Below are positions 7,813 through 31,489 of a DNA stretch of 53,642 nt, one piece after another. The translations under genes and the position numbers were made by a program. Positions within the stretch are counted from its first letter, which is position 1. Each line of letters starts with the position of its first letter. The notes beneath the pieces were generated by a model. The model ran no database searches. It was not told where the DNA came from and saw only the letters and a program-made list of their open reading frames with translations. Source of the DNA: Jatrophihabitantaceae bacterium (GTDB lineage Bacteria; Actinomycetota; Actinomycetes; Mycobacteriales; Jatrophihabitantaceae); the NCBI GenBank assembly GCA_036833255.1, contig DAITQD010000001.1, positions 1-53,642 of the forward strand, read 5' to 3'.

Positions 7813-8004
7813 GTGGACGAGCAGCTGCCTCCGCCGGCGTTCGCGGCCGGGCTGTGCGATCGCTGCGTCCACGCGATCGTTCGCCCGACCCGTCGGGACA
7901 CGACCTACCTGCGCTGCGGGTTGGCCGGCACCGATCACCGATTCCCGAAGTACCCGCAGCTTCCGGTGCGCAGCTGCGCCGGCTACGACGCGGCCCCGGC
8001 CTAG
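7813..8004 (+). CDS. Small Cys-rich hypothetical protein (63 aa)
   Basis: GTG start. MDEQLPPPAFAAGLCDRCVHAIVRPTRRDTTYLRCGLAGTDHRFPKYPQLPVRSCAGY has a CxxC...C...C pattern that I recognise as a widespread conserved hypothetical family. Third-codon positions are GC-rich. Its stop overlaps the stop of the convergent gene 8001..10166. Confidence 0.5.
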   Translation: MDEQLPPPAFAAGLCDRCVHAIVRPTRRDTTYLRCGLAGTDHRFPKYPQLPVRSCAGYDAAPA

Positions 8005-28915: not shown

Positions 28916-31489
28916 ATGACCGGAGATTTCACCAGCGTGCCGCTGCGCGCGACGGATCGGTGGACGGCGGCACGCATGCAACAGGGCCGGGTCCTGCTGG
29001 ACACCGACTGGAACCTCAACCTGGACGGCCCGGCCCGCGACGAGCGCCAGCTCACGCTCGACGCCATCGGCCCGGCGGGGGTTCCCGTCGGTAGCACCGC
29101 CTTCGCCCTCTCCTACGTCGGCGGCGTCCTGACCATCGGGGCGGGCACGATGTGGATCGGCGGCCTGCTGGCCCGCAACCCGGCGCCGCTGGCCTACACC
29201 GATCAGCCGGAGATCGATCCGCTGCCCTCCGGCGGTCTGGCCCAGCTGTACCTGGACGCGTTCGTCGAGGAGGTGCAGGCGGCCGAGGACGCCGAGCTGC
29301 TGGACCCGGCGCTGGACGGCGTCGACACCACGACGCGCACCCGGGTGGGCTGGCGGGTGCGCGCGATCCCGGCTCGGACCAACGCCTGCAGCGCGCTCGG
29401 GCTGCCGGCGCCGCAGAGCACCGGACGGCTCGATGTCGTGCGCACCGCCCCGCCGGCGAACGCCGATCCGTGCGCCCCGCCGGACGACCCGCGCAGCCGG
29501 CTGCCCGATGGCTTGCTGCGTATCGAGGTGATCGACGGCGGCACCGAGACGACCGCGCGCTTCGCGTGGAGCTACGCCGACGGCGGCGACGCGGTGGCCG
29601 CCCAGGTCGCGGGCACCGCGGTCACGCTGGTCCCGTCGCCGTCGGTGCTGTTCGCGCCGGGCGATCTGGTCGAGGTCAGCTCGCTGGCCCGCCGCGAGGA
29701 CCGCCGTGATCACGGCCCGCTGTTCTCGATCACCGCCGTGACCCCGCAGGCCGGCGGTGACCTGGTCACCCTGTCCGCCGCCAGTTCGTTGGCCGGCAAC
29801 CCGCCGGGCACCTGCCTGCGTCGCTGGGACGGCCAGCAGGTCGGCGCCTCGGCGGCCGTCTCCGCGACGCTGGCCGGGGCCGACGTCGGTATCGCCTTCA
29901 CCGCGAACCCGGGCAACTACGAGGTCGGCGACTGGTGGGGCGCGCGGGTACGCGGCAGTGCCGCCGACGCCGTCGAGACGCTCACCGCGGCCCCACCGGA
30001 CGGCATCCTGCACGCGCTCACTCCGCTGGCCGTCGTCGACCTGAGCCAGGCGGTGGTGCTCACCGACTGCCGCCCCACGTTCCTGCCGCTCACCGAGGTG
30101 CGCAGCACCTGCACCGTCACCTGCTTCCCCGGCGACGACCTGCAGGCCGGCTTGGACGCGCTGCCCGCCAGCGGTGGGGAGCTCTGCCTGGCCGCCGGCA
30201 CCTACCTGCTGCCGGCGCCGCTCACCCTCACCGACAAGCGGCGGATCGTCGTCACCGGCGTCGGCCCGTCGACGGTGCTCAGCATCGGCGGCCACGAGGC
30301 CGCCCTCATCGCCACCCGGTGCGACGACATCGAGGTCACCCGGCTGCGGGTCGAGGCCGGTCAGCCGGCCAGCAACGAGAAGCACCTGCTGGGCGGGCTC
30401 AGCTTCCTCGGCGGCGACGGCACCCGCGTCGTCGACTGCGAGATCTCATGCCCGGACAGCACCGACCGGGCGCAGTCGGGGATCTACGTCGCCCCGAGCG
30501 ACGACGGCCTCCAGCCGGCCGGCGTGCACCTCAGCGGCAACCACCTCTACGTCGGCGACCAACAGACCGGGATCCTGGTCGTGTCGGCCTACGACGCGAC
30601 GGTGACCGCCAACGTCGTCGAGCTGGCGCCGCTGCCGGTCATCCTGAGCCGGCGGCCGACCCGGCTGGCCGCCCGGCAGCTCGGGCGCTACGTCGCGGCC
30701 CAGGCGCTGGCCGAGTCGAGCAAGGCGGATGCGATCAAGCTGGCCGACAAGAGCTCGCTGAAGGTCGCCGGCAGCGCGGCCGTGAAACGACTGGCGGCCG
30801 ACTTCGCCGCGAACACGAGCGCCGCCTCGCTCAAGCGCACCGGAGACTCCCGGGCCGCGCTGGAGCGTTATGCCAGCGCCGCGGCCCTGGAACCGCATCA
30901 GGCGCTCACGAGCAAGGCCAGCTCGACGTTCCTGCAGCTGGCGCTGGCCAGCACACGCAGCGTCGGGCAGGGCATCGTCATCGCCGGGGAGCGGGCGGTA
31001 CGGGTCCGGATCGAGCACAACCGGCTGACCTCGGTGATCGAGGGCATCCACGTCGGAGTCGGCGGCCGCGCCGGCGACGAGCAGGCGGCCGGCCAGGTGC
31101 AGATCGTCGAGAACACGATCGACAACCTGGTGCCGTTCTACTGGTCGCGCCAGCGGCACGCGATCTACGTCGGCAGTTCGGCCAGCACGACGCTGCTGGA
31201 CAACCATGCCCATCTGACGCGAGGGACCGGCCAGTTCGTGGTGTTCCGGCAGTCGACCGGCGTCGAGGCCGTGCGCATCTGGGGACGGCTCGGCCCGTAC
31301 CTGCAGGTGCGCGGTCTGGACCTCACCGGGGCCTATTTCGTCGGCGTGCACATCGTCGACACCACCGGTCCGGCGATCGTCGGACACCAACCGGTCGCCG
31401 TGCGCTACGTCAGCGACGTGCTCAACCTCAACGGCGCGCACGCGCTCGACGTCCCGGCCTCGATCGCCGCGGAGCGCTGCGTTCCGTAG
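28916..31489 (+). CDS. DUF6519-like N-terminus plus right-handed beta-helix region; putative tail-fibre/receptor-binding protein
   Basis: MTGDFTSVPLRATDRWTAARMQQGRVLLDTDWNLN matches the DUF6519 start (GDFSR...QQGRV.LDADWNE). Downstream there are repetitive beta-helix-like segments (…CEISCPDSTDRAQSGIYVAP…GNHLYVGDQQTGILV…). It is the last gene of the operon. Confidence 0.7.
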   Translation: MTGDFTSVPLRATDRWTAARMQQGRVLLDTDWNLNLDGPARDERQLTLDAIGPAGVPVGSTAFALSYVGGVLTIGAGTMWIGGLLARNPAPLAYTDQPEIDPLPSGGLAQLYLDAFVEEVQAAEDAELLDPALDGVDTTTRTRVGWRVRAIPARTNACSALGLPAPQSTGRLDVVRTAPPANADPCAPPDDPRSRLPDGLLRIEVIDGGTETTARFAWSYADGGDAVAAQVAGTAVTLVPSPSVLFAPGDLVEVSSLARREDRRDHGPLFSITAVTPQAGGDLVTLSAASSLAGNPPGTCLRRWDGQQVGASAAVSATLAGADVGIAFTANPGNYEVGDWWGARVRGSAADAVETLTAAPPDGILHALTPLAVVDLSQAVVLTDCRPTFLPLTEVRSTCTVTCFPGDDLQAGLDALPASGGELCLAAGTYLLPAPLTLTDKRRIVVTGVGPSTVLSIGGHEAALIATRCDDIEVTRLRVEAGQPASNEKHLLGGLSFLGGDGTRVVDCEISCPDSTDRAQSGIYVAPSDDGLQPAGVHLSGNHLYVGDQQTGILVVSAYDATVTANVVELAPLPVILSRRPTRLAARQLGRYVAAQALAESSKADAIKLADKSSLKVAGSAAVKRLAADFAANTSAASLKRTGDSRAALERYASAAALEPHQALTSKASSTFLQLALASTRSVGQGIVIAGERAVRVRIEHNRLTSVIEGIHVGVGGRAGDEQAAGQVQIVENTIDNLVPFYWSRQRHAIYVGSSASTTLLDNHAHLTRGTGQFVVFRQSTGVEAVRIWGRLGPYLQVRGLDLTGAYFVGVHIVDTTGPAIVGHQPVAVRYVSDVLNLNGAHALDVPASIAAERCVP

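Follow-up and report, generated by a model that had tools for sequence, protein, structure and literature searches.

A locus for a probable fibre-bearing extracellular contractile injection system in a Jatrophihabitantaceae bacterium

The subject of this analysis is a stretch of 53,642 nucleotides from a Jatrophihabitantaceae bacterium (contig DAITQD010000001.1 of assembly GCA_036833255.1, positions 1 to 53,642; hereafter the window), in which a preliminary description had proposed a locus for an extracellular contractile injection system (eCIS) as opposed to a prophage tail. Our results agree with this proposal, as the locus combines a DUF4255 cap and an AAA+ ATPase with a full set of sheath, tube and baseplate genes and lacks capsid, terminase and lysis genes. 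We read it as a complete and probably functional contractile injection system (CIS) of the eCIS class, which comprises Afp and PVC, from a lineage of Actinomycetota, whose particle would be targeted by fibres and act from outside; we give this reading a probability of roughly 60%. It builds on the identities of the components, the coupling of their genes in an operon, the conserved synteny and the association of a cargo gene with CIS loci, all of which can be read from the sequence. From these we infer a binding site for the SARP regulator, a role for a Pro/Ala-rich protein, the route of cargo loading, the insertion of the cargo into a membrane and the site of action.

In the mechanism that we propose, the SARP activator encoded upstream would bind to four heptads, spaced by 11 bp, upstream of the sheath gene and switch on the 17-gene operon. 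A baseplate would assemble from a gpD hub, a gpV spike, a PAAR-like tip, LysM-like and gp25-like proteins, two Baseplate-J paralogues, a gpI-like protein and fibres anchored by DUF6519; tube and sheath would polymerise on this baseplate and the DUF4255 cap would terminate the tail, with the AAA+ ATPase assisting in assembly, cargo loading or both. A cargo protein of 720-740 amino acids (aa) would be recruited via its N-terminal eCIS_core (DUF4157) domain. The released particle would bind to the envelope and fire at it from outside, contraction of the sheath would expel the cargo, and the C-terminal glycine-rich hairpin of the cargo would insert into the membrane, where a domain with conserved His, Arg, Asp, Tyr and Cys residues would act.

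Components of the operon

Genes were called from a frame analysis of the GC content at third codon positions (GC3) combined with a listing of open reading frames (ORFs). The encoded proteins were compared to Pfam, NCBIfam and PHROG profiles and, by profile searches, to the PDB; matches below the curated cut-offs are referred to as weak. In the high-GC actinomycete DNA of the window (70-77% GC in the locus versus 61-72% in its flanks), GC3-guided calling yielded exactly 17 genes between positions 11446 and 31489, all of them on the plus strand, in line with the preliminary description of 17 co-directional and almost throughout tightly joined genes. Tight are 14 of the 16 junctions: nine are 4-nt overlaps, the genes for the LysM-like protein and the hub overlap by 8 nt, and gaps of 2, 4, 1 and 1 nt separate sheath from tube, tube from Cys4 protein, spike from PAAR-like protein and gpI-like protein from fibre, respectively. 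The two loose junctions, of 129 nt between the Cys4 and Pro/Ala-rich genes and of 58 nt between the PAAR-like and gp25-like genes, are the places where a 60-nt repeat has its two copies. The locus is one tightly coupled operon.

The first gene (11446-13344) encodes the contractile sheath, which is Afp2/Cis2-like (Phage_sheath_1, E = 8e-14, and Phage_sheath_1C). The nearest solved sheaths are, in this order, Cis2 of Streptomyces coelicolor (8bky, E = 1e-56), 9ezm, 9qgl and those of PVC, AFP, tCIS and AlgoCIS, with the gp18 sheath of T4 far behind (E = 1e-8). Two partial stretches align to Cis2. Residues ~200-390 of the window sheath form an inserted domain that is absent from Cis2 (632 aa versus 534 aa), and residues 252-283 give a weak match to Flagellin_IN (E = 0.0025). 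The second gene (13347-13850) codes for the inner tube, which is Afp1/Cis1-like (Phage_T4_gp19, E = 9e-39; TIGR02241 above its cut-off; CIS1_fam, E = 7e-15).

The pair regarded in the preliminary description as the hallmark of an eCIS was found as adjacent, overlapping genes, namely the Afp16/Pvc16-like tail terminator or cap with its DUF4255 domain (15369-16559; Pvc16_N, E = 1.5e-24) and the Afp15-like AAA+ ATPase (16556-18460; AAA at residues 426-550, E = 1.6e-21). The cap carries a C-terminal extension and gives a weak TIG match, and the ATPase also matches AAA families of the CDC48/CdvC type. The profile hidden Markov models (HMMs) likewise recovered the sheath, the tube, the gpD hub, the gpV spike and the two Baseplate_J proteins that had been named before. 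The hub, gpD/Afp7-like (19521-20630), matches Phage_GPD just above the cut-off (E = 2e-7) as well as VgrG_rel (E = 9e-9), and the spike, Afp8-like with a gpV/VgrG OB-fold (20627-21127), matches Phage_base_V (E = 1.7e-20). The two Baseplate-J/gp6-like paralogues, of 837 aa (21900-24413) and 808 aa (24410-26836), have no Pfam match and are assigned by TIGR02243, the 'putative baseplate assembly protein' family (E = 3.7e-31 and 4.9e-18, respectively), and by the baseplate wedge family PHROG 219, which is matched by both (E = 5e-8 for the first). The profile of the 808-aa protein, which is Cis11-like, matches the Baseplate J-like protein of the S. coelicolor system (9gtp_1K, E = 8e-8); the search of the 837-aa profile against the PDB found nothing.

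For four further baseplate proteins named in the preliminary description, matches do exist, yet they are weak. The 87-aa LysM-like protein (gpX/Afp6-7-like; 19265-19528) matches the baseplate wedge family PHROG 7145 (E = 2.5e-5), the LysM region of the endolysin family PHROG 380 (E = 6e-4) and the baseplate hub family PHROG 46 (E = 0.019). The PAAR-like tip (DUF4280-like; 21129-21461) has a partial DUF4280 match below the cut-off (E = 0.002) and a CPHGG motif, and is conserved in relatives. The Afp9-like, gp25-like wedge (21520-21903) matches GPW_gp25 below the cut-off (E = 0.009) and the baseplate wedge families PHROG 43 (E = 9e-4) and PHROG 261 (both about 1e-3), and its homologues in relatives match PF04965 weakly. 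The putative gpI/gp7-like wedge of 693 aa (26833-28914) matches Tail_P2_I below the cut-off (E = 0.008), has no PDB profile match and is 70-76% identical in relatives. The three genes with sub-threshold matches, i.e. those for the PAAR-like, gp25-like and gpI-like proteins, are conserved in position across relatives. The tandem of Baseplate-J paralogues (21900-26836) is kept together with the gpI-like protein throughout the lineage, and the three proteins may form a wedge core that replaces the (gp6)2-gp7 arrangement.

Four proteins without any HMM match are kept in position and sequence in at least 12 related loci. The first is a 225-aa Cys4 protein (13855-14532), syntenic in all relatives, for which searches of Pfam, NCBIfam, PHROG and PDB profiles found nothing; its earlier designation as zinc-ribbon-like is in keeping with two CxxC pairs that are invariant in the family alignment (C79, C82, C159 and C162). 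The second is the Pro/Ala-rich protein of 236 aa (14662-15372), whose conservation in relatives is limited to the C-terminal 40-60 aa and whose gene always abuts the cap gene. Of its former description as tape-measure-like, the position stands, while no HMM match and no homology to any tape-measure family was found; by position, it is a candidate for a length-determining (tape-measure-like) or assembly protein. The third is a conserved 57-aa protein (18457-18630) without support in Pfam, NCBIfam or PHROG, for which tblastn gives matches in relatives at the corresponding place (E = 1e-8 to 1e-13); gene calling in two related loci (L001 and L002) yields a counterpart of 58-78 aa there. The fourth is a conserved 213-aa protein (18627-19268), 61-69% identical in relatives, with no family HMM or PDB profile match. 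It had been called tube-initiator-like, and its position would suit a tube initiator or adaptor; the profile of the family has no likeness to that of the tube (hhalign probability 0.2%), so that this assignment remains unproven.

The last gene of the operon (28916-31489) encodes the tail fibre, with matches to DUF6519 (E = 6e-7) and Beta_helix (E = 3e-5); a single-sequence phmmer search of the PDB gave nothing significant. A DUF6519/beta-helix fibre-like protein had been predicted at this place, and DUF6519 corresponds to a published anchor of eCIS fibres, eBAP5, which is one of five domains that anchor such fibres to the baseplate and which correlates with Actinobacteriota (PMC12923769). The protein thus consists of a conserved DUF6519 anchor and a more variable C-terminal part with a right-handed beta-helix. 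In a comparison to 58 homologues, residues 1-480 were 56-79% identical, residues 561-680 27-30% and the beta-helix end 35-50%, which is the pattern expected of a conserved anchor joined to a more variable distal part. All relatives examined have a DUF6519 fibre gene, as the window does. The catalogued Actinobacteriota eBAP5 loci resemble the locus in that their hosts are actinobacteria and that the baseplate block ends with a gene bearing the DUF6519 anchor; the catalogue is computational and its members are known from their genes (PMC12923769).

The operon shares with Afp and PVC the sheath, tube, hub, spike, PAAR, gp25, J, I, fibre, ATPase and cap components, the absence of a head and a cargo gene flanking the operon. 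It differs from these systems, which have three sheath paralogues, another gene order, adenovirus-like fibres of the eBAP1 type, Gram-negative hosts and cargo loaded via N-terminal signal regions and not via DUF4157, and its similarity to their sheaths is confined to the C-terminal domain (E = 1e-31 to 1e-36).

Relatives, cargo candidate and regulator

The sheath has more than 1,300 homologues. Copies that are 100% identical occur on other metagenome contigs, and the identity is 81% in Micromonospora, 76% in Arthrobacter sp. OV608, 74-78% in matches named Nostocoides, Lapillicoccus, Ornithinibacter or Actinomycetaceae, and 62-63% in Mycobacterium sp. and Streptomyces sp. NBC_01643. Synteny was assessed by mapping each protein of the window onto related loci that had been fetched for this purpose. 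All 17 genes were found in the same order, at 48-90% identity, in Micromonospora (six loci), Nostocoides (three loci), Arthrobacter and two uncultured lineages, and the same 17-gene core is carried by a 712-kb linear plasmid of Streptomyces sp. NBC_01643. The conserved synteny includes the 57-aa ORF, the Cys4 protein and the C-terminal end of the Pro/Ala-rich protein. The high identity across actinobacterial orders, together with the carriage on a plasmid, points to horizontal spread. Among the carriers are cultured, non-mycelial strains, namely Arthrobacter sp. OV608 and Nostocoides japonicum T1-X7. The lineage is under-annotated in public records: RefSeq labels most core genes of the NBC_01643 plasmid 'hypothetical' and annotates a 57-aa remnant where the Pro/Ala-rich gene lies (23822-23995 of that locus, L101).

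The preliminary description had placed a DUF4157 gene and a SARP gene immediately upstream of the operon, and both genes proved to be real and adjacent. The cargo or effector candidate is encoded on the minus strand (8001-10223), divergently from the SARP gene, and matches Pfam eCIS_core (DUF4157, PF13699; E = 1e-29). The protein has about 720-740 aa, with a likely start at the ATG at 10166, from which the residues of the core domain are numbered here. It consists, in this order, of an N-terminal Cys/His-rich stretch, the eCIS_core domain with its HExxH motif (H121, E122 and H125 nearly invariant), a beta-sandwich, a core domain of ~300 aa and a conserved, glycine-rich hydrophobic hairpin at the C-terminus. 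The nearly invariant residues of the core domain include H364, R381, D421, Y461 and C491, which, as a speculation, hint at an enzyme, possibly with Cys/His chemistry.

The region beyond DUF4157 has no Pfam match. In an exhaustive HMMER search it was found in 149 representative clusters, 83 of them at E <= 1e-10, as compared to four homologues only in a word-indexed search. Of 60 sampled members of this family, 52 have eCIS_core and no other Pfam domain, and two close homologues of the cargo are encoded within CIS loci, L019 and L020, that are built quite differently. This fusion to eCIS_core and the location in CIS loci argue for a dedicated CIS cargo module. AlphaFold2 modelling of the cargo gave a pLDDT (predicted local distance difference test score) of 36.7 with an alignment of five sequences and of 74 with one of 60 sequences; the latter model is confident and multi-domain, and in large parts of residues 40-130, 180-270 and 350-530 its pLDDT exceeds 90. 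Foldseek searches of the model against PDB and BFVD returned nothing significant, and in the model the cargo domain has an unassigned fold. The best Foldseek hit was to an L,D-transpeptidase, at E = 0.2, and we did not rely on it.

DUF4157 proteins bind to the complex of spike and tube initiator of Streptomyces CIS (PMC11126660, PMC13277306). Like the DUF4157 effectors described by Geller et al. (2021) and Danov et al. (2024), the candidate combines an N-terminal eCIS_core containing HExxH with a variable C-terminal module and is encoded beside a CIS; it differs from these in that its C-terminal module matches neither a Pfam family nor, at E < 0.2, a fold in PDB or BFVD. It also resembles Tme of the Streptomyces davawensis CIS, a DUF4157 effector with transmembrane helices at the spike/tube-initiator complex (PMC11126660). 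Tme, however, is an endonuclease of 2,247 aa that is related to tape measures and encoded within the cluster, just upstream of the baseplate genes, whereas the candidate of the window is about 720-740 aa long, lies outside of the operon and has an unrelated domain. In relatives, the gene right after the fibre gene is variable: it codes for a DUF4157 protein of 411 aa in Nostocoides, 1057 aa in Arthrobacter and 1475 aa on the Streptomyces plasmid, and in one locus (L103) the slot is occupied by an Ntox1 protein. No conserved immunity gene was found beside the cargo gene or its homologues. A small ORF of 63-67 aa (7803-8004, plus strand) with high GC3 and CxxC, RC and SC motifs is convergent with the cargo gene, their stop codons overlapping in CTAG; it was considered as an immunity gene and rejected, as it has no Pfam match and is not conserved beside cargo homologues.

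The SARP activator (10310-11215, plus strand) has an OmpR-like DNA-binding domain and a BTAD domain (E = 1.9e-17), and the AfsR model NF053617 aligns to its residues 56-277 (E = 1.8e-6). In the closest relatives, L001 and L102, the sheath gene is likewise directly preceded by a BTAD gene. The promoter region of the sheath gene contains four direct GGGACGS heptads with a spacing of 11 nt (11250-11289, plus strand), detected as three overlapping pair matches, and in L102, an 83% relative, GNGACGY occurs four times with an 11-nt period upstream of the sheath gene (9833-9877). Direct heptads at 11-bp spacing are the classical arrangement of SARP-binding sites, and the heptads of the window constitute a putative site of this kind. 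A second direct repeat, of 12 nt (GCCGCTTCGTTG), is located at 11370-11381 and 11388-11399. A scan of positions 7200-11500 for sigma-70 promoters and terminators found none.

Where the particle would act

To our knowledge, all characterised actinobacterial CIS work inside of the producer and lack fibres. We consider action from outside, after release of the particle, as most likely for the locus of the window, because it encodes a fibre with a variable distal part. Several points weigh against this reading. Since the locus encodes neither a lysis cassette nor a secretion route, release from a Gram-positive cell is unexplained. The nearest solved relative, the CIS of S. coelicolor (CIS-Sc), is cytoplasmic (PMC10066040), and the membrane hairpin of the cargo resembles the membrane-targeted effectors of intracellular Streptomyces systems. 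The fibre, which is kept at full length with 42-76% identity, is less variable than typical receptor-binding proteins. A weak point of the reading as a whole is that the gp25-like, PAAR-like and gpI-like matches are below the cut-offs and that the 213-aa and Pro/Ala-rich proteins have no HMM match. Finally, for this lineage external action is a prediction from genes.

The alternative to be weighed most carefully is that the system resembles CIS-Sc and SLP, i.e. that it stays in the cytoplasm, docks on the membrane of the producer and delivers its membrane-inserting cargo there, in which case the 'fibre' would be a docking adaptor, as opposed to a protein binding receptors of foreign cells, and the outcome stress-induced death or physiological tuning of the producer; we regard this as rather unlikely. 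CIS-Sc and SLP, from S. coelicolor and S. lividans (dbeCIS clade IId), share with the locus the actinobacterial host and effectors with membrane helices and provide the nearest solved sheath (8bky) and Baseplate-J protein (Cis11, 9gtp). The arrangement of an upstream DUF4157 gene on the reverse strand, a cluster-specific regulator gene and the sheath gene resembles that of SLP with Sle1/Sle2 and SlpR (PMC13277306). A further argument for intracellular action is the C-terminal hydrophobic hairpin of the cargo, which is like those of Sle1 and Sco4256-4258, and so are the absence of lysis genes and that of a conserved immunity gene beside the cargo gene or its homologues.

The locus also differs from CIS-Sc. 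CIS-Sc has neither an Afp13-type fibre (PMC10066040) nor a typical tape measure; its tube is encoded by two paralogous genes (cis1a and cis1b), and its cap and ATPase genes are located elsewhere in the cluster. The locus of the window, in contrast, has one gp19-type tube gene, two Baseplate-J paralogues, a sheath that is ~100 aa longer and another gene order, and its lineage always has a DUF6519 fibre, the distal half of which is the more variable. CIS-Sc depends on the membrane protein CisA (PMC10066040, PMC12237407). No CisA-like ORF, with a transmembrane segment and a sugar-binding domain, follows the baseplate and fibre genes, the next ORF being a truncated DUF1345 gene, although no CisA sequence was compared in this case; and none of the structural proteins contains a strong transmembrane segment. 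Also not in favour of an intracellular mode, the carriers include the non-mycelial Arthrobacter and Nostocoides, and relatives carry cargo of the polymorphic-toxin type such as Ntox1.

A recent catalogue reported that many Actinobacteriota loci carry fibres, without experiments (PMC12923769). Both DUF4157 cargos and DUF6519 fibres have already been catalogued, and the locus adds a member to a known class. Beyond this, it is conceivable, and we suggest it tentatively and with some doubt, that the lineage represents the first workable example of a fibre-bearing, extracellular CIS of Gram-positive Actinomycetota, which moves on islands at tmRNA sites and on linear plasmids and delivers a membrane-anchoring enzyme toxin with a new fold. 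If true, this would set the lineage apart from the Streptomyces systems, cytoplasmic and self-directed, by which the biology of actinobacterial CIS is now defined. With its fixed core of 17 genes, its DUF6519 fibre, its own SARP switch and its slot for interchangeable DUF4157-tagged cargos, the lineage is a clean test case: overexpression of the SARP could force production of the particle, and the lineage could decide the question of whether functional eCIS particles are released by Gram-positive bacteria. It is also a source, for engineering, of a modular loading tag and a new cargo fold.

Integrity of the locus and its genomic island

We also assessed whether the locus could be an inactive relic on a decaying genomic island, which we hold to be very unlikely. 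The two loose junctions of the operon contain the copies of the 60-nt repeat, at 14534-14593 and 21466-21525 (both on the plus strand, 90% identical, without further copies in the window), and in relatives the genes overlap at both places; the insertions thus break otherwise overlapping junctions. Together with the truncation of the neighbouring DUF1345 gene at a repeat and the lack of an integrase gene within the surrounding 30-kb block, this would be compatible with decay. Translation, however, is preserved at both insertions: the first copy, in front of the Pro/Ala-rich gene, creates an upstream ORF of 25 codons (14588-14665), the stop of which overlaps the ATG of that gene, and the gp25-like gene takes its start codon from the last 6 nt of the second copy. 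Each of the 17 ORFs is intact, has full length in comparison to its homologues and shows a strong GC3 coding signal, and identical or near-identical proteins are encoded on several independent metagenome contigs. Folding of the 60-nt repeat as RNA gave z-scores of -0.9 to +0.7, i.e. no signal of structure, and Rfam at gathering thresholds had no match in the window.

A prophage tail module or R-type tailocin is a still less probable explanation, to which we attribute a very small chance. The core genes are homologues of phage tail genes, phage sheaths give partial matches, and an integrase gene and att-like repeats are located nearby. These phage sheaths, however, match only the C-terminal 38-43% of the window sheath at ~35% identity; the best of them reaches 36% identity over 43%, and a coverage of at least 80% is not attained by any phage record. 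The cap and the AAA+ ATPase are present, and at least four genera share the 17-gene unit, without a head and with DUF4157 cargo genes attached. No tape-measure domains were found in the window. In agreement with the preliminary description, the Pfam scans of the GC3-supported flanking ORFs over the 53.6-kb window revealed no genes or domains for capsid, portal, terminase, packaging, replication or lysis (including holin and endolysin), nor for the membrane complex of a type VI secretion system. To the latter kind of system we give a practically negligible probability. Both have a sheath, a tube, a VgrG-like spike, a PAAR-like tip and a gp25-like protein, but the locus has a single-gene sheath of the phage type instead of TssB/TssC, a DUF4255 cap and a fibre, and no TssJ/L/M, TssA, TssK or ClpV was found among the ORFs of the window.

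The earlier claim that the whole locus sits inside a repeat-bounded island could be confirmed in part only: the repeats exist, and integration at a tmRNA gene (ssrA) is plausible. A direct repeat of 51 nt, present at 2917-2967 and 33224-33274 (plus strand; 96% identity between the copies), resembles the tRNA-like 3' end of tmRNA, with partial Rfam tmRNA matches of about E = 1e-8 (1.8e-8 for the left copy) that are below the gathering score. The two copies bound a block of 30.3 kb with a PadR-ABC-FtsX gene triplet, the CIS locus and a helix-turn-helix (HTH) gene. A gene for a tyrosine integrase with its integrase domains (1393-2724, minus strand) lies immediately to the left of the left copy. 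Exact copies of a 38-nt core of the repeat are present in at least 80 soil metagenome contigs, 13 of which share the 140-250 nt preceding the right copy of the window, four the element after the left copy and three the adjacency of integrase and att. No recognisable tmRNA gene was found in these contigs, and an exact search of JGI metagenomes for the right flank of the island gave 0 matches, so that no empty site was found; integration at ssrA is hence plausible but not proven.

The CIS locus itself is closely flanked by an inverted repeat of 28 nt (7642-7669 versus 31809-31836 and 31915-31942). It is the end of a repeat of ~200 nt with direct copies at 3021-3240, 7505-7669 and 53269-53494 and inverted copies at 31804-31836 and 31911-31942, the ends of which face the CIS locus on both sides. 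The members of this family end in GCGGGCCGAGGTTTTTGAGCCCCACAGG, and TGTCA motifs are found where the element starts, as they are in the arm that precedes the right att copy; the repeat could be an integrase arm site or an element similar to miniature inverted-repeat transposable elements. The gene following the fibre gene, an N-terminal fragment of a DUF1345 membrane protein (31553-31879, plus strand), is cut where the inverted repeat begins (31804), and this truncation looks like a scar of a rearrangement.

Toxin-antitoxin modules are found at the borders of the island, with an AbiEi antitoxin gene (577-1203, minus strand) on the left, an ORF and an Xre-type HTH gene (32064-32712, plus strand) inside of the right end, and Phd/YefM-ParE genes (33525-34057, plus strand) just outside of the right repeat. 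The PadR-ABC-FtsX/MacB triplet is near the CIS locus both in the window (3375-7218) and in Micromonospora sp. NPDC048930 (L004; 19622-22556), the ABC proteins being 47% identical, and elsewhere (in L065) a PadR gene likewise follows a junction of integrase and att. This vicinity may be a coincidence or indicate a linked module. To the right of the island, three genes for large glycosidases of the secreted type, all ending in NPCBM_assoc and NPCBM domains, stand in a row (34363-44402, minus strand). They code for two GH35 beta-galactosidases (1275 and 1417 aa) and a melibiase of 691 aa, are paralogous according to internal DNA repeats of 70-80% identity, and adjoin galE, galK, galT and genes for a DeoR regulator and a sugar ABC transporter.

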